From Hahella sp. KA22 (GTDB lineage Bacteria; Pseudomonadota; Gammaproteobacteria; Pseudomonadales; Oleiphilaceae): a DNA stretch of 24,000 bases. Positions 21 to 11,263 of this stretch are shown here, piece by piece. The translations under genes were made by a program, and so were the position numbers. Numbering within the stretch: position 1 is the stretch's first letter; each line of letters starts with the position of its first letter. Location of the stretch: positions 3,925,644-3,949,643 of the forward strand of contig NZ_CP035490.1 in assembly GCF_004135205.1 (NCBI RefSeq). Reading direction: 5' to 3'. The notes beneath the pieces were generated by a model. It saw only the letters and a program-made list of their open reading frames with translations, was not told the DNA's origin and did not search any database.

Positions 21-1139
21 ATGGCTTCCGTTACATTGCAAAACCTGGGCAAGCAATACAAAAAACAGACCGTGCTGCGGGATATCCACTTACAGGTCAG
101 AGACGGCGAGTTTCTGGTATTGGTGGGGCCTTCTGGCTGTGGCAAATCCACACTGCTGCGCATGATCGCCGGGCTGGAAACTGTTTCCGGCGGCGATATC
201 CGTATCGGCGAGCGCTTGGTGAATCAGCTGGACCCGGTGGACCGGGGCATCGCCATGGTGTTCCAGTCCTATGCGTTGTATCCCCACATGACCGTGTGGG
301 ACAACATGGCGTTTGGCCTGAAAATGGCCGGCGTCGCCAAACCGGAGCGGGAGCGGCGCATTCAACAGGCGGTGGAATTGCTGCAACTGCAACCGCTGGT
401 CCAGCGCAAACCGGCGGAGCTGTCCGGCGGTCAGCGTCAGCGCGTGGCCATTGGGCGTGCGATCGTGCGCAAGCCGGAGGTATTTCTGTTTGATGAGCCG
501 CTTTCCAACCTCGACGCCAAACTGCGGGATCAGATGCGGGTGCAACTGTCCGAACTGCATCAGCGCCTGGGGGCCACCATGATTTACGTCACCCATGACC
601 AGAAAGAAGCCATGACCATGGCGGACCGCATCGTGGTGATGCGCAATGGCGTTATCGAGCAAGTGGGTACGCCCCTGGAGTTATATCATCAGCCCGCCAA
701 CCGCTTTGTCGCCGGTTTTATCGGCTCACCCGCCATGAACTTTCTGCCCGTGCGCATGAGGGCGCTGACTGCCCGTGATGTTTCTCTGGAGCTGCCGTGG
801 GGGCAGGCGATTCAGGTCGACGCGTCCAGATTTAACTTGAATGCGGGGGGAGCAGGCCTGAAAGCTGGCGTGCAACTGGAGCTGGGCATACGCGCTCAGG
901 GGCTCGTCATCGACGACAGCAGCGACCTGCGCATGCAGGTTGACGTGGTGGAGGAGCTGGGCAATATCGCCTATGTGCATGGACGTATTCAAACGCATCG
1001 TCTGATCATGGAGACAACTACCCGAGCGCCTCGCGCCGGAACCGAGGTGGGCGTCAGATTAAAGCCGGACATGCTGCATCTGTTTGACGAGCATGCGATG
1101 AGTCTGGCCTCGCAGATGGAGCGCGCCCATGCTGCTTGA
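21..1139 (+). CDS. Sugar-type ABC transporter ATP-binding subunit (MalK/UgpC/MsmK-like)
   Basis: 372-aa ORF with Walker [13 protein letters not shown] signature LSGGQRQR, Walker B FLFDEPLS and H-loop YVTHD. The C-terminal ~130 aa resemble the MalK-type regulatory/TOBE extension. ATG at 21 is preceded by AGGAA. Confidence 0.93.
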
Positions 1140-1941
1140 GATTATTGGAACCGGCGAAGCCTACGACCGTTATCGGGTGAACGCCGCGGTACTGGTGCAG
1201 GAACAGGACTTCCGCCTGCTGATCGATTGCGGACCAACAGTGCCCCAGGCGCTGTGGCGGCGTCAGTTGGCGGCGGACGCTATCGACGCGATCTATCTGA
1301 CCCACATTCATCCGGATCACGCCTCCGGCTTGACCGCGCTGTTGAACCAGTGGGGCTCCGCCGGGCGGCGTCAGCCTTTGCAGATTCTTTGTCAGCCCGG
1401 TCAGCAGGCGCACCTGGAGTGGATGTCCACTTATGCGGCCTGGCCTGAACAGTTGCCCTTCGCTATTCAGTGGCGCGACGCCAGCCTGACCACGGAAATC
1501 GGCCCCTGGACGCTGCAAACGGCGCCGACCCAGCACAGCGTTAGCAATCTGGCGTTGCGCCTGGAGCAAAAAGGGCCCGTTTCCCATCCTACGGGCTCTC
1601 TGTTTTACAGCGGAGACGGTCGTCCGACCGCCGCAAGCGCCAGCTTGATGAGGGGATGCGTGATGGCCATGCAGGAGTGTTTTTCTCCTATGGAGCAGGG
1701 CGAGGGCAGCCATCATGGCGACTTGCCCGGCTGCCTGCGCCAATTGCAAAGCGCCCGTCCTCGTCATTTATTGCTGTATCACATTGAAGACGGCCAGCAT
1801 ACCGCTGTGGCCGAGTCCATCCGATCTCGCGTCGATGTGTCGGTGGCGGAGGATGGGGAGCGCTGGTGTTGCATCACCGGCGCGCCACTGAACGCGCGAT
1901 TAGATCAGCAAGGAGAACGCTATGCAGCGGGAGCAGGCTGA
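1129..1941 (+). CDS. MBL-fold metallo-hydrolase (RNase Z / beta-lactamase-fold family)
   Basis: 270-aa ORF with the HxHxDH metal motif ([10 protein letters not shown]). The start overlaps the upstream stop by 11 nt, which suggests an operon. GC3-rich codon usage like its neighbours. Confidence 0.8.
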
Positions 1942-5612: not shown

Positions 5613-5750
5613 GCAGGTCGAAAAAGCGCAGCGCCTTTCGAGGTTTAGCGCTATGTCTACGTAGGATTAATGCATTCAAATACAGTTGGTTGTAAGATAT
5701 TTTTAATGCTGATTGTTGGATGGCGCTGCGTTTATCCAACCTACGTTTAT
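5613..5750. repeat. Composite REP/BIME-like element, copy 1 (left hairpin + AT-rich linker + right hairpin)
   Basis: Left arm GCAGGTCGAAAAAGCGCAGCGCCTTTCGAGG. Right arm GTTGGATGGCGCTGCGTTTATCCAACCTACGTTTAT (5715..5750). Same architecture as copies at 6596..6726, 6819..6950 and 22187..22307. Confidence 0.75.
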
Positions 5751-5780
5751 CACTGCATGCGCTGATTTGCGGGTGTGAAA

Positions 5781-6599
5781 ATGGATAGAACCGACGTTTG
5801 CTGGGACATGCTCTACATCGGCTGGGATGTGGGCGGCTGGAACTGCGATAGCAACAGTAAAAGCCGTGACGCCTTGGCGGTGTTGGATAATCAGCGCAAC
5901 CTGCTGGGCAAGCCCTGGCGAGGGAATTTGCGGACAGTTATCAATCAGGCCGCCACCACGGCGGAATGGATTCAGGCGCTGCTTGATTGCTGCGAGGTCA
6001 AATGGGCACTTCCTGCTGTGACCCTAGCAATCGATACGCCTTTGGGCTTCTCCCTGGCGTTGCAGCAACTGATCACTGGTGGAGCTCCAGTCGACCGGCT
6101 GGATGAGTCCGCCGCCAACCCTTATCTGTTCCGTTTCACTGAGCGTTTTTTATTCCAACATGGCTTGACGCCACTGTCTGTGGTCAAAGATATGATCGGC
6201 AGTCAGGCCACGAAAGGCATGCATGCGCTCGCAAAATTCGCGTCTCGGCGAAAATCCGTGGGTGTTTGGGAAGGGGATGGTCAGCTTCAGGCAATCGAAG
6301 CCTATCCGTCGTCCTGCAAACACTCCGACCTTATGGCGACGCTGCTGGAGCCATTTTGCTCTGAGCGGCGCAGCGACAAGCAGCCCATACGTGATCACTG
6401 GCGAGACGCCGCATTTATAGCGAACATCGACCATGACGACAAACGGGACGCACTGATCTGCGCCTTGATCGCCTGGCTGTTCGTGAACCAGCCCGAACAG
6501 CTCCAACAGCCTGAACCCGGTACCCCTTTGTCGGAAGGCTGGATCTTCGTCCCCAGAGATGGATTGGATGTAAAGATGAAAAGCTACAAAACCAAGTAG
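5781..6599 (+). CDS. Hypothetical protein, DUF429-like / RNase-H-fold predicted nuclease
   Basis: About 272-aa ORF. The N-terminus IGWDVGGWNCD...DALAVLD, the mid AIEAYPSS and the C-terminal DHDDKRDALICALIAWLF resemble the DUF429 pattern (GIDxxxxGW ... E.HP ... DALDAL.CA). Start is uncertain (GTG 5775, ATG 5781, ATG 5808). The stop TAG lies inside repeat copy 2. Confidence 0.6.
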   Translation: MDRTDVCWDMLYIGWDVGGWNCDSNSKSRDALAVLDNQRNLLGKPWRGNLRTVINQAATTAEWIQALLDCCEVKWALPAVTLAIDTPLGFSLALQQLITGGAPVDRLDESAANPYLFRFTERFLFQHGLTPLSVVKDMIGSQATKGMHALAKFASRRKSVGVWEGDGQLQAIEAYPSSCKHSDLMATLLEPFCSERRSDKQPIRDHWRDAAFIANIDHDDKRDALICALIAWLFVNQPEQLQQPEPGTPLSEGWIFVPRDGLDVKMKSYKTK

Positions 6600-6726
6600 G
6601 TCGGAAAAGTGCAGCGCCTTCCGACGCTATGTTTTCATGTGAGTAAATGCAATTAATTTAATGGATTGAGATTGTTTGTTAAATCCGTTTGTTGGATGGC
6701 GCTTTGCTTATCCAACCTACGTTTAT
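6596..6726. repeat. Composite REP/BIME-like element, copy 2
   Basis: Left arm GTAGGTCGGAAAAGTGCAGCGCCTTCCGACGCTATGTT, a ~57-nt AT-rich linker, and right arm GTTGGATGGCGCTTTGCTTATCCAACCTACGTTTAT (6691..6726). The reverse complement of the right arm (GTAGGTTGGATAAGCAAAGCGCCATCCAAC) is homologous to the left arm, so the arms act as terminal inverted repeats. Confidence 0.8.
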
Positions 6727-6741
6727 GAGTTGGAAGATGTC

Positions 6742-6772
6742 GGGGAAGTGCGGGCGGGCCGCCCGCGCTCCC
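6742..6772. repeat. 31-bp GC-rich palindromic repeat, left copy (flanks the DarT-DarT-DarG insert)
   Basis: GGGGAAGTGCGGGCGGGCCGCCCGCGCTCCC is identical to 9407..9437 in direct orientation. It contains the near-perfect palindrome GCGGGCGG-G-CCGCCCGC. Confidence 0.85.
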
Positions 6773-6818
6773 AGGACAGTCAGGGCTTGAGCAGGCTTTG
6801 TGTTTCGTCGCGAGTTGG

Positions 6819-6950
6819 GTAGGCCGGAAAAGCGAAGCGCCTTCCGACGCTGTGTTGCTCTCTTTTTAATGTCATTAATATCAATAAGTTGAATGGTTTT
6901 GTTAAGCCAAATAGTTGGATGTGTCAGATTGACGCGGCAATGGCGCTGGG
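6819..6950. repeat. Composite REP/BIME-like element, copy 3 (right arm degenerate or interrupted)
   Basis: Left arm GTAGGCCGGAAAAGCGAAGCGCCTTCCGACGCTGTGTT, then an AT-rich linker homologous to copy 2. The right arm begins AGTTGGATG but diverges (GTGTCAGATTGACGCGGCAATGGCGCTGG). Confidence 0.6.
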
Positions 6951-6985
6951 AGTGCATCAGGCCGCCTTAATGCTACCCAGCCTAA

Positions 6986-7014
6986 TTGCAGGATTACTGT
7001 GCGGTGATTTAAAT
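6986..7014 (+). promoter_or_regulatory. Candidate sigma70-type promoter for the DarT-DarT-DarG operon
   Basis: TTGCAG, a 17-nt spacer, then TTAAAT, about 75 nt upstream of the first DarT-like ATG. The match to consensus is weak. A GAGGA SD lies 8 nt before the ATG at 7088. Confidence 0.25.
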
Positions 7015-7087
7015 GAGCTAGATTTTATTATGTGCCGCCAGACTCAGTCGTAGCACAGGAACTGTTGAAGGAAATGAGGATAATGCA

Positions 7088-7687
7088 ATGCCGAGGGATA
7101 TTAAAAATAAAATGCTGGTTTACCATCTGACTGCGCTGGAGAACCTGCCATCTATTCTTGCTAATGGGCTAATGGCGCGTGCTGAGCTGCAGGCAAATTC
7201 CTTCGAGGATATTGCTGATTCTGAGATAATTCGATCCCGTGCCGAGCAAAGTTTAGATAGTTATGTACCCTTTCATTTTTTTTCTAGAACACCTTTTGAC
7301 TACGCAGCTCAGCGTGGGAATATAGACGTTCCTTTTATTTTGATTGCGGTACGAAGATCTCATGCAAAAGCAAGGTCTTGGAAAATTATTCCAAGACACC
7401 CCTTATCTCTTAACAATGGCGAAAAAGTCGTAATTATGGAGTATGACCAGGGAATTGAAGCAATTAATTGGGCGCTGATGGAAAGCACCGATCACTGCTA
7501 CGGTGCAGACTCTGATTATAAACAGGCATGTATGGCGGAGTGTTTATCGCCAACAGCCGTGAGTGCTGCCAATTTCCATTCAATATTTGTGAAAACAGAC
7601 GAAGATAAGTCTATCGTACTTGGCCTGCTAAAGGAGGCTGGCATTGACCTACATGTCAACCTAGTTCCGACTATGTTTGTTAATTAA
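7088..7687 (+). CDS. DarT-like DNA ADP-ribosyltransferase (DUF4433 family), divergent copy A
   Basis: 199-aa ORF in the AT-rich insert. It has the DUF4433 N-terminal motif LVYHLTALENLPSILANGL, SYVPFHFF, and an ARTT-like Glu in KQACMAECLS. It is colinear with the downstream paralog across its whole length. SD GAGGA is present. Confidence 0.8.
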   Translation: MPRDIKNKMLVYHLTALENLPSILANGLMARAELQANSFEDIADSEIIRSRAEQSLDSYVPFHFFSRTPFDYAAQRGNIDVPFILIAVRRSHAKARSWKIIPRHPLSLNNGEKVVIMEYDQGIEAINWALMESTDHCYGADSDYKQACMAECLSPTAVSAANFHSIFVKTDEDKSIVLGLLKEAGIDLHVNLVPTMFVN

Positions 7688-7691
7688 TACA

Positions 7692-8336
7692 ATGATCTAT
7701 ACCAGTTTGAACCCACAGAAAGCGCTCATCTGGCGCATTGTTCATCGTGAAAATGTTCCTTGGATTCTAGACCACGGTTTGCACTGTGGAAACAGTCCAG
7801 TTAGCTCGTCTAATTGGGTGAGTATTGGTAATCCTGAGTTAACTGACAAACGCGCGACGCATGCAGTTCCCGTGGGGCCAAAAGGATACTTGAATGACTA
7901 TGTGCCTTTCTATTTCACTCCGTTCTCCCCAATGATGAAAAATATTCACAGCGGATGGGGAGGAATTAAACAGCGGCCGAATGAGGAGATTGTAATTCTC
8001 GTTTCCGACTTGTACCGTGTCAGCGAAATGGGGCTACCCTTTGTTTTTACCAATGGGCATGCATATTACGCTTGGACCGACTTCTTCACTGACCTAGACG
8101 ACCTAGAAAATATTGATTGGACTATTATCCAGTCCAGAGATTTCAAGCGAGACCCTAATGACCCAGCCAAATTCGAGCGATATCAGGCTGAGGCACTGAT
8201 ACATCAATCTTGTCCAGTCGATGCCTTAAAGGGCATGGTTTGTTACACTGAAAACACAAAAAAACGATTGGATGGTTGGTTGCACGAGCGACAAATGGCC
8301 ATGCCAGTTCATGCGCGGCCAAGGTGGTATTTCTAA
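7692..8336 (+). CDS. darT: DarT-like DNA ADP-ribosyltransferase (DUF4433 family), canonical-looking copy B
   Basis: About 214 aa from the ATG at 7692 (an alternative TTG at 7677 overlaps copy A). Motifs are [45 protein letters not shown] and [10 protein letters not shown] (catalytic-Glu motif QAE.L), which closely resemble characterised DarT. The stop overlaps the darG start (TAATG). Confidence 0.85.
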
Positions 8337-9403
8337 TGATTTCGTATGCACAAGGTAATTTACTTGAGGCGGAAGTGGAAGCGCTGGTGAATACCGTAAA
8401 TACCGTTGGAGTGATGGGAAAGGGCATTGCTCTGATGTTTAAAGAGCGCTTTCCGCAAAATATGCAGGCTTATGTCAGGGCCTGTAGAACAGGAGATGTG
8501 GTCACAGGGAAGATGTTCATCACTAAAACAGACGAGCTGATGGGGCCGAAGTGGATTGTTAATTTCCCAACGAAGCAGCATTGGCGCGCAAAGTCCAAAA
8601 TGGAGTGGATTGATGAGGGGCTTGTGGATTTGCGTCGATTTATTACAGAACACCATGTAAAGTCAATTGCAATCCCCCCGTTAGGTGCCGGTAATGGTGG
8701 TTTAAGCTGGCAGGACGTGAAGCGCCGCATTGAAAAAGCCCTTACTGATATTGAGGGCGTCGATATTCGGGTTTATGAACCCACAGCAAAATATCAAAAC
8801 GTTTCAAAAAAGGCGGGTGTAAGCGAGCTTACCACTTCACGAGCAATGGTCGCTGAACTTGTGCGTCGCTATTGGATACTCGGTATGGAGTGCAGCTTAC
8901 TCGAAATTCAAAAGCTTGCTTGGTTTTTACAGCGAGTAATTGATGCGCAAGGTTTAAAAAATGACTTGGAGCTTCATTTTGAAGCCAATTACTACGGGCC
9001 TTACGCTAATAACTTAACTCATTTATTGAATGCTCTAGATGGTAGCTACCTTAAGTCTGATAAGCGCATTCCTGACAGTGACCCTCTGGACGTCATCGCT
9101 TTTAACGATACCAAAAGAGAATACGTTGAAACTTATTTGAATACTGAGGGGCAGGATTATTTGCCTGCATTAGAAAAAGCCAGCGAGATAATTAGTGGCT
9201 TTGAATCGCCCTTTGGGATGGAGTTGCTTGCCACTGTTGACTGGTTGCTAACAAGAGAAGGGTGCGAACCTACTTTGGAGTCCATTAAGGGCGGTATTGC
9301 TCATTGGCCATCAGGAAAGAAATGGGCTGAGCGCAAGCTTGCTTTATTTGATGACAGAAGCTTGCAATTCGCAATAGATCGAATGAAGACGGCTTCAATT
9401 TAA
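8336..9403 (+). CDS. darG: DarG-like antitoxin: N-terminal macrodomain (ADP-ribosyl-DNA glycohydrolase) plus C-terminal DarT-binding domain
   Basis: 355 aa from the ATG at 8336 ([40 protein letters not shown]). It has the macrodomain phosphate loops GVMGKGIA and [10 protein letters not shown] and the catalytic-Lys motif [17 protein letters not shown]. The ~190-aa C-terminal domain (..[23 protein letters not shown]..) has DarG-like length. The track's 8276 start is an unsupported N-terminal extension. Confidence 0.9.
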
Positions 9404-9406
9404 AGA

Positions 9407-9437
9407 GGGGAAGTGCGGGCGGGCCGCCCGCGCTCCC
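9407..9437. repeat. 31-bp GC-rich palindromic repeat, right copy
   Basis: Identical to 6742..6772. It starts 4 nt after the darG stop and ends 9 nt before the convergent TPR gene stop. Confidence 0.85.
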
Positions 9438-9445
9438 GGATCGGG

Positions 9446-11263
9446 TTAGTTCTGCAGTTGTTTTTCTGCGTCGGTTTTCCAGGGGGAGGCCAGGCCCAGT
9501 CTGAGGGAGGATTTGAACAGGCTTTGCGCTTCCGCCGTCTGGCCGCTTTTCTGTTTCACTTTGGCGTAATGGTAGTTGATGGTCGGGTTATTGGCGGCCA
9601 GTTGGTAGGCTTTGCCGATGTTGGTTTCCGCATCGTCAACTTTGCCCAGACGGAATTGTATCCAGCCCAGCGTGTCGAGAACGGTGGGGTTGATGGGGGC
9701 GAGTTTTGCGGCTTGCAGGGCCAGTTTCTCCGCTTCCTTGAGTTTGTCCGTCTCGCCCAGCAGGTACGCCAGATTATTCAACGCGCCCAGGTGGGAGTCG
9801 TTCAGATGCAGGACGCGGCGATAGGCGTCTATGGCCTGATCGGTTTTCTTGCCTTCCTCATACAGAGAGCCTAACAGGAACAATCCTTCGTGAGATTCCG
9901 GATTATTTTTGACCAGAGTTTCCATTTCCTGCTGGGCTTTATCCAGCTCGCCCAGTTGTTTCAGAGCGACGGCTTTGGCCATGCGCAGGGAGCCGGAGTC
10001 CGGCGCCCGTTGCAACCCTTTATCAAACAGGTCCGCGGCGGCGGCGTAGTCACGGGTGAAGGCGTGAAAGGAGCCTGCGTACAGATAACTCTGTGGGTTG
10101 TCCGGGTAAGTCTTTAACAGGTCGCTGTATACCGCTTTCGCCTTAACCGGGTCGTTCTGCAGCTGATACAGGCTGCCCAGACGCTGATAGTACGGGAAAG
10201 GCGTCTTGGACCGCTTGATCAGGTCTTTATAGACTTTCTCCGCCAGCTCATGTTTGCCGGATTGCGCGAAGTAATCGCCGGCCTGCACCGCCAGATTTTC
10301 CGGCAGCGCTTTGTCTTGCAGCGCTTTTTGGTAGTCGCTGACGGCTTTATCGTGATCGTCTTTCTTGGTGTAGGTCAGCGCGCGCTGGAAATAGCCCAGC
10401 CCCCAATCTGACTTTAATTTGAGCAATTGGTTGAAGCTGTTGAGTGAGTTATCCAGCTGACCCGCGTCGCGCTGGGCGATGCCCAGAGAAAGCAGGGGCG
10501 CAGGTTGTTTCGGCGACAATTTCAGCGCTTTCTGGAACAGGGGAATTGCCGCCTCAGGGCTTTGGTTGGCGACGTACGCGTTGGCGAGCAGCACCAGGGC
10601 GACGGCGTTGTCGCTGGTGGCGTCAATAATCGGGGAGAGCAGTTTGATGGCTTTGCCTGATTCGCCATTTTTGACGTACTGCTCCGCCAGATTAAGTTTG
10701 ACGCCCACATAACCCTCTGGCGTGTTGGCCAGACCTTTCTCCAGGTGCTCAATAGATTTGGCGACCTCGCCTTGTTCCTGATAGATCAAGCCCAGCCGTT
10801 GATGCGCGCGCGCATCGTTGTCGTTGTAGCCGACGGCGGTTTTGTAAGCGTTAAACGCCTTCTTGGGTTCTTTCAGGGCGGTGTGAACGTCGCCTTGTTT
10901 GGTCCAGGCGGAGCTTTGCGTTGGCGCCAATTGCGTGGCTTTTTGTAGCTGCTTGAGCCCTTCCTTGAGTTTTCCCTGCAACGCCAGCACCGTGCCTTTC
11001 AGCTCCAGCGCCAGTGAGTTATTCGGCTCTTTGGCGAGAATATCATCCAGCAGCTTCTGGCTTTGCATAAACTTTTGCTGCCGAATCAGGTCCAGCGCGG
11101 TGGCGAGATCCTGATTGGCGGGCTGCAGCTCGCCGCCGGCGGGAGGCGCGTCAAGAAAGAAAAGGCTGCTGTCGGACTGAGCGGAGCTGGGTTGCGTAAT
11201 GGCGGCGTGACTGCCGCCAACGGCGAAAAAAATCGCCAGCGCTAAAGAGAGGCGTTTGTTCAT
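9446..11263 (-). CDS. Secreted tetratricopeptide-repeat (TPR) protein
   Basis: Signal peptide MNKRLSLALAIFFAVGGSHA from the ATG at 11263; the track's 11302 start adds 13 implausible residues. About 14-16 consecutive 34-aa TPR-like units follow (e.g. ALELKGTVLALQGKLKEGLKQLQKATQLAP, AHQRLGLIYQEQGEVAKSIEHLEKGL). Confidence 0.85.
   Translation of the reverse strand: MNKRLSLALAIFFAVGGSHAAITQPSSAQSDSSLFFLDAPPAGGELQPANQDLATALDLIRQQKFMQSQKLLDDILAKEPNNSLALELKGTVLALQGKLKEGLKQLQKATQLAPTQSSAWTKQGDVHTALKEPKKAFNAYKTAVGYNDNDARAHQRLGLIYQEQGEVAKSIEHLEKGLANTPEGYVGVKLNLAEQYVKNGESGKAIKLLSPIIDATSDNAVALVLLANAYVANQSPEAAIPLFQKALKLSPKQPAPLLSLGIAQRDAGQLDNSLNSFNQLLKLKSDWGLGYFQRALTYTKKDDHDKAVSDYQKALQDKALPENLAVQAGDYFAQSGKHELAEKVYKDLIKRSKTPFPYYQRLGSLYQLQNDPVKAKAVYSDLLKTYPDNPQSYLYAGSFHAFTRDYAAAADLFDKGLQRAPDSGSLRMAKAVALKQLGELDKAQQEMETLVKNNPESHEGLFLLGSLYEEGKKTDQAIDAYRRVLHLNDSHLGALNNLAYLLGETDKLKEAEKLALQAAKLAPINPTVLDTLGWIQFRLGKVDDAETNIGKAYQLAANNPTINYHYAKVKQKSGQTAEAQSLFKSSLRLGLASPWKTDAEKQLQN

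Follow-up and report, generated by a model that had tools for sequence, protein, structure and literature searches.

DarTG systems are a model for reversible DNA ADP-ribosylation and for abortive infection by toxin-antitoxin modules, and their DarT2 enzymes, which ADP-ribosylate thymidine in single-stranded DNA (ssDNA) at short motifs, are now used for genome editing. We analyzed a 24,000-nucleotide stretch of the Hahella sp. KA22 genome (contig NZ_CP035490.1, positions 3,925,644 to 3,949,643), referred to here as the window, in which two DarT-like genes, A and B, precede a single darG gene, G. Judged by its sequence, the A-B-G cassette is a three-gene variant of DarTG2, in which an ordinary DarT2-DarG2 core is joined by a DarT of an uncharacterized subfamily. 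The genes and their translation signals are as follows, where EPEC is enteropathogenic Escherichia coli and aa is amino acids.

7076-7080, + strand: GAGGA, a Shine-Dalgarno-like sequence 7 nt 5' of the ATG of A, read from the sequence
7088-7687, + strand: gene A (darT-A), 199 aa, divergent DarT-family ADP-ribosyltransferase of an uncharacterized subfamily
7692-8336, + strand: gene B (darT-B), 214 aa, canonical DarT2 (thymidine-type) of the EPEC lineage
8321-8327, + strand: AAGGTGG, the Shine-Dalgarno motif of darG, read from the sequence
8336-9403, + strand: gene G (darG), 355 aa, with an N-terminal macrodomain and a C-terminal DarG domain

This layout matches the initial annotation, which was made from the DNA letters and had described two neighboring DarT-like open reading frames (ORFs) followed by one DarG-like gene. 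Only 4 nt separate the TAA of A from the ATG of B, and the TAA of B overlaps the ATG of G (TAATG). The ATG at 7692 was taken as the start of B and is backed by the B-family consensus MxYxxLNPxKALIW. Inspection of the junction sequence revealed no Shine-Dalgarno motif belonging to B itself, which fits translational coupling of B to A. A terminator scan 3' of G detected no canonical terminator.

Profile searches, which the initial annotation had suggested as a check, place A and B in the Pfam DarT family and match G to the Macro and DarG models. B scored 187 bits against Pfam DarT and 261 bits against NCBIfam toxin_DarT (cut-off 150), and matched the Thermus DarT2 structure 7OMV at 2e-24. G scored 440 bits against NCBIfam antitoxin_DarG (cut-off 250) over residues 2-350 of 355, 416 bits against PADLOC DarG, and 83 bits against Pfam Macro. 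The catalytic-Lys motif attributed to the DarG-like gene is present, and the Lys of NFPTKQHW is residue 80 when counted on the translation, which is also the number of the catalytic Lys in characterized DarG. B is 67% identical to the EPEC-type E. coli DarT, and G is 69% identical to E. coli WP_000634203.1, the DarG of that E. coli locus, which has the same accession as EPEC DarG2. Through this 67-69% identity to the EPEC system, B and G would be expected to modify thymidine in ssDNA, to reverse the modification, and to act in phage defense.

Gene A is a member of the same family, and its protein is 100% identical to one annotated in strain KA22. It scored 93 bits (E 2e-26) against Pfam DarT (PF14487/DUF4433), passing the gathering score of 22.5, and 130 bits against PADLOC DarT. 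A and B are colinear over their whole length yet share 21% identity, and alignment of the A-family profile with the B-family profile gave a probability of 98.4%; the earlier view that they do not result from a recent duplication stands, and they are two anciently separated genes. Modeled with AlphaFold2 from 30 homologs, A had a predicted local distance difference test score (pLDDT) of 91.8 and a predicted template modeling score (pTM) of 0.88. In a Foldseek comparison of the model with the PDB, the strong matches were DarT structures only. The template modeling (TM) scores were:

Thermus DarT2 with NAD analog and ssDNA (7OMY): TM 0.82
Mycobacterium tuberculosis DarT (7yk3): TM 0.78
Thermosipho africanus DarT-DarG fusion (7OMU): TM 0.75
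E. coli C7 DarT1 (8BAQ): TM 0.70

The confident model and its TM of 0.82 confirm a DarT fold for copy A and remove the objection that it might not have a DarT or ADP-ribosyltransferase fold at all. At the profile level, the A family comes closest, among solved structures, to the DarT domain of the T. africanus fusion (E 4.8e-15), and the match to DarT1 (8BAQ) is confined to the N-terminal ~40 residues (5-45). Current annotation hides this distinct architecture: PADLOC and NCBI both call A simply DarT-family.

In the 30 A homologs, which have 52% average column identity, the residues Y12, H13, N19, R51, P61-F62-H63, H104, W128, and C148-M149-A150-E151-C152 are invariant. These residues, among them Y12, H13, N19, R51, H63, H104, and E151, are conserved 100% in 66/66 intact A copies from the three-gene loci described below. 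Active site equivalences were assigned by alignment, using the Thermus DarT2 numbering of a published review (PMC9967889) and profile alignment for B:

A H13/T15/N19; Thermus DarT2 H13/T15/N19 (NAD ribose contacts); B R15/V17/N21
A R51; Thermus DarT2 R51; B R54
A H63; Thermus DarT2 Y71 (nicotinamide stacking); B Y74
A H104; Thermus DarT2 His of F-T-D-R-H; B H123
A E151; Thermus DarT2 E160; B E167

The DarT2 catalytic set is represented in the A alignment by H13, T15, N19, R51, H104, and E151, each of them invariant or almost invariant. As had been read from the letters, both copies keep the glutamate of the ADP-ribosylating turn-turn (ARTT) loop, E151 of A aligning to E167 of B, and the N-terminal motifs differ: A has Y-H-x-T, as in Thermus DarT, and B has W-R-x-V, as in EPEC-type DarT2, which matches the first NAD-site position of B, R15 (IWRIVHRDN). 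The statement that A lacks the F-T-x-G-H-A segment of B did not hold, because the invariant I-P-R-H-P-L of A aligns there and His104 falls on the invariant His123 of B. In DarT2 the ARTT-loop His contacts thymine (PMC11543638), and H104 is likely to be the counterpart of that residue in A. The stretch from H104 to E151, the ARTT region, is shorter in A than its counterpart in B. By this alignment, A would be an "H-H-E" DarT, with H13/H63/E151 replacing the H-Y-E triad and with the remaining catalytic elements intact. Assignment of A as a guanine-type DarT1 was considered and rejected: it has no NADAR partner, the DarT1 signature is missing, and the profile similarity is N-terminal only.

To gauge how widespread the arrangement is, 185,579 species, each represented by a single genome, were scanned for A with a motif-seeded search, which found 141 genomes encoding an A relative. 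The 80 best loci were taken, and their six-frame ORFs were searched with A, B, and G. As the initial annotation had proposed, gene neighborhoods were counted: two DarT genes and one DarG are colinear in the order A-B-G in 70/80 loci, and all three genes are intact in 67 of the 70; of the remaining three, L056 has a frameshift in A, L075 a truncated A, and L061 a frameshift in B. The junctions are tight throughout, with A/B spacings of -4 nt at 32 loci, -1 nt at 16, and 0 to +4 nt at 20, and B/G spacings of -4 nt at 44 and -1 nt at 24, together 68/74 scored three-gene loci. Hosts include the gammaproteobacteria Pseudomonas, Marinomonas, Dickeya, Providencia, Yersinia, Idiomarina, Marinobacter, and others, and the betaproteobacteria Massilia, Nitrosospira, Snodgrassella, Rhodoferax, Ideonella, and others. 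Yersinia ruckeri has three matching called genes, encoding a DarT of 191 aa, a DarT of 218 aa, and a Macro protein of 355 aa. A macrodomain DarG adjoins A in 80/80 genome loci and in 17/17 viral loci. The three-gene arrangement is thus widespread and not peculiar to Hahella sp. KA22. A locus on a contig of a metagenome-assembled genome labeled "Gemmatimonadetes" (L006) has A, B, and G lengths, junctions, and bit scores equal to those of Halopseudomonas pelagia (L007), and is probably a binning artifact rather than a cross-phylum occurrence.

Purifying selection acts on A, whose ratio of nonsynonymous to synonymous substitution rates (dN/dS; pairwise Nei-Gojobori, 69 comparable pairs) is 0.106; the values of B and G are 0.086 and 0.044. 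Pairwise distance matrices correlate at 0.79 for A-B, 0.81 for A-G, and 0.91 for B-G, and the three genes are mostly co-inherited. The possibility raised at the outset that copy A is a decaying duplicate is contradicted by its dN/dS, by the site residues kept in 66/66 intact copies, and by its confident DarT fold. In a neighbor-joining DarT tree, built without DarT1, which was compared by structure, A and B form two deep clades, and the E. coli/EPEC two-gene DarT is nested among the B proteins of three-gene loci. A disrupted DarT gene stands beside an intact DarG at L056 (A), at L061 (B), and at L086 (E. coli STEC2017-197, NZ_CP075663.1, where darT is annotated as frameshifted). No disrupted DarG was found in the loci examined, the only short copies being those of L048 and L052, both of which end at contig ends. 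Frameshifted DarT genes next to intact DarG genes are the pattern expected of an essential antitoxin.

A-type DarTs also occur outside the A-B-G order. At six genome loci (L023, L035, L036, L073, L076, L077), A is followed directly by a divergent DarG, here DarG', and B is absent. The same pair is found in 16/17 A-type loci of IMG/VR viral contigs (L168-L183), and B in none of the 17. Hosts of the A-DarG' pair include Proteus, Serratia, Nostoc, Paenibacillus, and Cytobacillus plasmids (Bacillota megaplasmids; L185, NZ_CP097350.1) in addition to the IMG/VR contigs. DarG' is 321-350 aa long, and the toxin gene and the DarG gene that follows it overlap or are closely spaced. Five of the six genome-locus DarG' genes were scanned against NCBIfam DarG and score 211-335 bits; against the window DarG, DarG' proteins score 128-172 bits, whereas the DarGs of three-gene loci score 440-640 bits. 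These two-gene A-DarG' modules appear to be an uncharacterized DarTG subtype in their own right.

Other combinations are found as well. At L012 (Vibrio tapetis), L018 (Psychromonas), and L051 (Kistimonas), A is accompanied by a Thermus-like DarT' lineage and one DarG, either convergently (A on the + strand and DarT'-DarG' on the - strand) or in the order DarT'-DarG'-A. The association of A with another DarT lineage at these loci indicates that the combination of A, another DarT, and one DarG arose more than once. At L054 (Vibrio splendidus), A is convergent with a DarG; directly upstream of this A-facing DarG, L054:6835-8424 (- strand) encodes a 529-aa protein that is HD-domain-like by eye and may be a defense gene. 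An A-like DarT domain also forms the C-terminus of four large proteins: P0251 (1274 aa), a superfamily 1 (SF1)/UvrD-like helicase fusion reminiscent of DarHTG; P0266, a calcineurin-like phosphoesterase fusion; P0246, which contains DUF6273; and P0232, which has a weak, sub-cut-off match to DUF3584.

Three possible roles of the extra DarT had been put forward by the initial annotation: two toxins of different specificity held in check by a single DarG, a sensor or regulator of B, and a partner of B in a heteromeric toxin. The best supported is two toxins under one DarG. It is favored by the occurrence of A-DarG pairs elsewhere, by the constant position of A beside a DarG, and by the same DarG lineage serving either B or A and B. 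We consider it probable, from the sequence evidence, that A is an active toxin controlled by DarG; that its motif specificity differs from that of B is considerably less certain.

The DarG macrodomain removes thymine-ADP-ribose and not guanine-ADP-ribose, and NADAR does the reverse (PMC11543638). DarG2 additionally sequesters DarT, and DarTG systems defend by abortive infection. Against this background, we propose that one operon would express two different DarT ADP-ribosyltransferases together with one DarG. B would ADP-ribosylate thymidines in ssDNA, as an ordinary EPEC-like DarT2. A would most likely also ADP-ribosylate a base in ssDNA, forming a macrodomain-reversible (thymine-type) adduct, probably within another sequence motif. 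Reversibility by the macrodomain is suggested by the linkage of A to macrodomains only, since these reverse thymine- and not guanine-ADP-ribose, and thymine is the most likely target base given H104 together with this linkage. In the uninfected cell, the single DarG would neutralize both toxins, its macrodomain acting in trans on the adducts of both and its C-terminal domain probably sequestering at least B. One DarG could suffice because the hydrolase would work in trans on the product and not on a specific toxin. Upon phage infection, both toxins would be freed and replicating DNA would be modified. Two divergent toxins may give denser or broader targeting, and either one may serve as a reserve when the other is overcome by a phage inhibitor or an escape mutation.

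Several observations weigh against an active A toxin stacked on B-G in this way. A survey in the reciprocal direction, from B, took the best 80 metagenomic loci with close B relatives (57-73% identity), of which 73 were classifiable; A is directly upstream of B in 27/73 and absent from 46/73. The B-G module is present in 249/5,426 complete E. coli genomes, at ~81% nucleotide identity to the Phytobacter B-G. In none of the 250 matching E. coli records was A aligned, the best match starting past the position of A, and the two E. coli loci inspected are plain two-gene B-G modules between hsdS and hsdR. The E. coli darT has its own Shine-Dalgarno sequence and ATG, and no scar of A. Loss of A can be traced in one case: locus L102, which lacks A, and L074, which has it, share 96% nucleotide identity over B-G and 98% identical B proteins, and the final ~9 codons of A survive in L102 directly before darT-B (L102:2974-3000 versus L074:1900-1926), from which we infer that A was deleted there from a three-gene ancestor. 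In favor of the proposal, the near-identical B-G of these two loci makes it plausible that one antitoxin is shared. Near-identical B-G pairs with and without A make A a facultative add-on, and A is dispensable for B-G. Within three-gene loci A is the fastest evolving of the genes, with a mean pairwise identity of 52% versus 65% and 68% for B and G.

Other points on the same side concern the proteins and their expression. A scores 68 bits against NCBIfam toxin_DarT, under the cut-off of 150, and so falls outside the curated equivalog, and the nicotinamide-stacking Tyr of the H-Y-E triad is replaced by His (H63). The DarG of three-gene loci has no obvious adaptation to A, which leaves the neutralization of A unexplained if physical sequestration is needed. 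A promoter scan of the + strand 5' of A revealed no consensus sigma-70 site, and the single A-B-G operon is proposed from gene spacing only. The activity, toxicity, and target that we assign to A-type DarTs are likewise predictions from sequence comparison.

One alternative is a non-toxic accessory role, in which A is a sensor, regulator, or decoy that tunes the release of B by binding NAD+, ssDNA, DarG, or an anti-DarTG protein of a phage. B-G can occur without A, the A gene comes first in the operon, and A carries H63 where the triad has Tyr; its faster evolution (52% versus 65-68% mean identity) would fit a sensor or decoy in an arms race, and the DarHTG system gained an essential accessory gene, a helicase (PMC13069673). 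However, if A had no catalytic role, it would be difficult to see why the catalytic residues, the ARTT Glu, R51, and the base-contacting His among them, are invariant in 66/66 copies, and elsewhere an A-type DarT is the sole DarT beside DarG in typical toxin-antitoxin pairs. We regard an accessory role as unlikely.

Alternatively, A may be an active ADP-ribosyltransferase that acts on a different substrate class from B, such as another base, RNA, or a protein like B or DarG itself. Base specificity is known to vary between DarT subfamilies (PMC11543638), A belongs to a deep separate DarT clade with 21% identity to B, its H104-E151 region is shorter than that of B, and helicase and phosphoesterase modules occur in fusion with A-like domains. 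The active site argues otherwise: H104 aligns to the invariant His of B and to the R-H of Thermus DarT2, the thymine-contacting position, and A lacks both the Ser63 of DarT1 and a conserved acid where DarT1 has D54. The gene linked to A encodes in every case a macrodomain, which does not act on guanine-ADP-ribose, and in no case a NADAR, and the A model is nearer to DarT2 than to DarT1 (TM 0.82 versus 0.70). A substrate of another class is about as unlikely as an accessory role.

An obligate heteromeric toxin of A and B would account for the tight translational coupling of the two genes and for the correlation of their distances (r = 0.79). That correlation is below the B-G value and is explained by co-inheritance. 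B-G is functional without A, as in the EPEC defense system, 46/73 related loci have no A, and A occurs with DarG where B is missing, all of which render a heteromer very improbable. Chance juxtaposition, or the remnant of two DarTG systems in a defense island with A as a decaying orphan, might be suggested by the clustering of defense genes (a PDC-S44-like gene lies just upstream) and by the frameshifted and truncated A of L056 and L075, but is effectively refuted by the order and overlapping stop and start codons kept in 70/80 loci of Gamma- and Betaproteobacteria, by the low dN/dS and 100% conserved catalytic residues of A, and by the three genes staying together while the flanking genes change.

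A DarG-controlled, toxic A thus remains the favored reading. A more ambitious proposal, which we hold to be possible but doubtful, is that A represents a third functional DarT class, with an H-H-E site, a sequence-motif or target preference of its own, and a macrodomain-reversible adduct, stacked on B-G as a selected anti-counter-defense design. If this proposal is true, a promiscuous DarG silences two non-redundant toxins and a phage must defeat both, in a natural "two effectors, one antidote" toxin-antitoxin architecture. A single toxin could fall to a toxin-specific inhibitor, to depletion of its target motif, or to a polymerase escape mutation.

The surroundings of the cassette in the window contain a candidate defense gene and a pair of direct repeats:

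5775-6599, + strand: PDC-S44-like candidate defense gene, 274 aa, 375 bits against PADLOC PDC-S44, with no Pfam or NCBIfam match
6742-6772, + strand: left copy of a 31-nt perfect direct repeat, GGGGAAGTGCGGGCGGGCCGCCCGCGCTCCC, a GC-rich palindrome
9407-9437, + strand: right copy of the same repeat, GGGGAAGTGCGGGCGGGCCGCCCGCGCTCCC, 4 nt beyond the end of darG and 9 nt short of the stop codon of a convergent TPR gene

The 31-nt repeat has exactly 2 copies in the 24 kb, and none would be expected by chance. The right copy is possibly a bidirectional terminator hairpin, an insertion-site duplication, or both; as it is not followed by a run of Ts, a terminator role is tentative. In 1-kb windows, the guanine-plus-cytosine (GC) content is 44-47% over ~6500-9500 versus 51-62% elsewhere in the scan. 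From the low GC content and the bracketing repeats, the cassette looks horizontally acquired, amid housekeeping genes. Three other loci (L022, L059, and L067) have their own perfect flanking direct repeats of 27, 27, and 54 nt, which are unrelated in sequence, and the flanking repeats suggest insertion with target-sequence duplication. The gene annotations of the window include no integrase near the cassette. A reading of the flanking palindromes as integron attC sites was rejected, as the RYYYAAC/GTTRRRY core sites are absent by eye.

The PDC-S44-like gene and the DarTG cassette together are a mini defense islet among housekeeping genes. A 26-nt imperfect palindrome resembling repetitive extragenic palindromic (REP) sequences (GTCGGAAAAG..CTTCCGAC) is present in three copies, at 5617-5642, 6600-6625, and 6823-6848; two of these bracket the PDC-S44-like gene exactly, and the third sits between the left 31-nt repeat and gene A. 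A 54-codon ORF is present at 6889-7053, in a frame with many stop codons. Across the surveyed loci the upstream neighbors of the cassette vary, with Mrr in 10/62, hsdS in 9/62, and a diverse remainder, and no conserved fourth gene or regulator was found among them. Elsewhere in the window, 1129-1941 (+ strand) encodes a metallo-beta-lactamase-fold (MBL) protein in a sugar ABC-transporter/LacI operon; it matches Pfam Anti-Pycsar_Apyc1 (PF23023) and Lactamase_B, and is most likely a generic MBL hydrolase.

The finding is an elaboration of a known system and not a new principle, but it is robust, widespread, and apparently undescribed. A second DarT under one antitoxin is present in about one third of close metagenomic relatives of EPEC-type DarTG2 and in at least 70 bacterial species. 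It offers a new DarT subfamily for biochemistry, possibly with a new sequence specificity useful in editing tools. It is also a clean natural setting in which to ask if a single enzymatic antitoxin can keep several toxins in check, and if redundant toxins work against the anti-DarTG factors of phages. The initial annotation knew of no tandem-DarT description, and none was found in the searchable literature either, although one may exist in LeRoux 2022 or Schuller 2021. Tandem DarTs are not mentioned in the accessible part of a study that presents a tree of ~5,000 DarT sequences (PMC11481870). The DarTG types in the searchable literature, each with a single DarT, are DarTG1 (NADAR), DarTG2 (macrodomain), and DarHTG (helicase and ARH-type DarG3), and the paper on DarHTG calls canonical DarTG systems two-component (NAR 2026, PMC13069673).

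The closest known system is the DarTG2 of EPEC E2348/69, located in a type I restriction-modification (R-M) island (PMC12255303). It resembles B-G in its toxin-antitoxin order and overlapping codons, and its DarG shares with G the K80 macrodomain and the C-terminal DarG domain. The EPEC system consists of two genes, whereas the window cassette departs from the two-gene organization of DarTG2 with three genes, two of them DarT: A stands in front, and B lacks its own Shine-Dalgarno motif. Unlike EPEC DarTG2, the cassette is not in a type I R-M operon. The A-DarG' pairs have the A subfamily in common with the cassette, but have no B and carry the divergent DarG' lineage. The T. africanus fusion (7OMU) shares with the A family a MAECL-like active-site strand and the linkage of DarT to a macrodomain, but it is one polypeptide with no second DarT, has ~23% identity to A, and lacks the PFHF and PRHPL motifs.

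DarTG1 (PMC11543638) shares the common DarT fold and the logic of reversible DNA ADP-ribosylation. Its antitoxin is a NADAR protein, and its guanine adduct is not reversible by DarG; the cassette has no NADAR, and its sole partner is a Macro/DarG protein. DarT1 has S63 at the Tyr position and an R52-D54 pair, whereas at these places A has H63 and, two residues beyond R51, no conserved acid. DarHTG (PMC13069673) is likewise a three-gene system in which one gene has been added to a toxin-antitoxin pair. Domain searches and annotations reveal no helicase in the window cassette: the extra gene of DarHTG encodes a UvrD-like helicase and its antitoxin has another fold, whereas here the addition is a second DarT and the antitoxin an ordinary macrodomain DarG.

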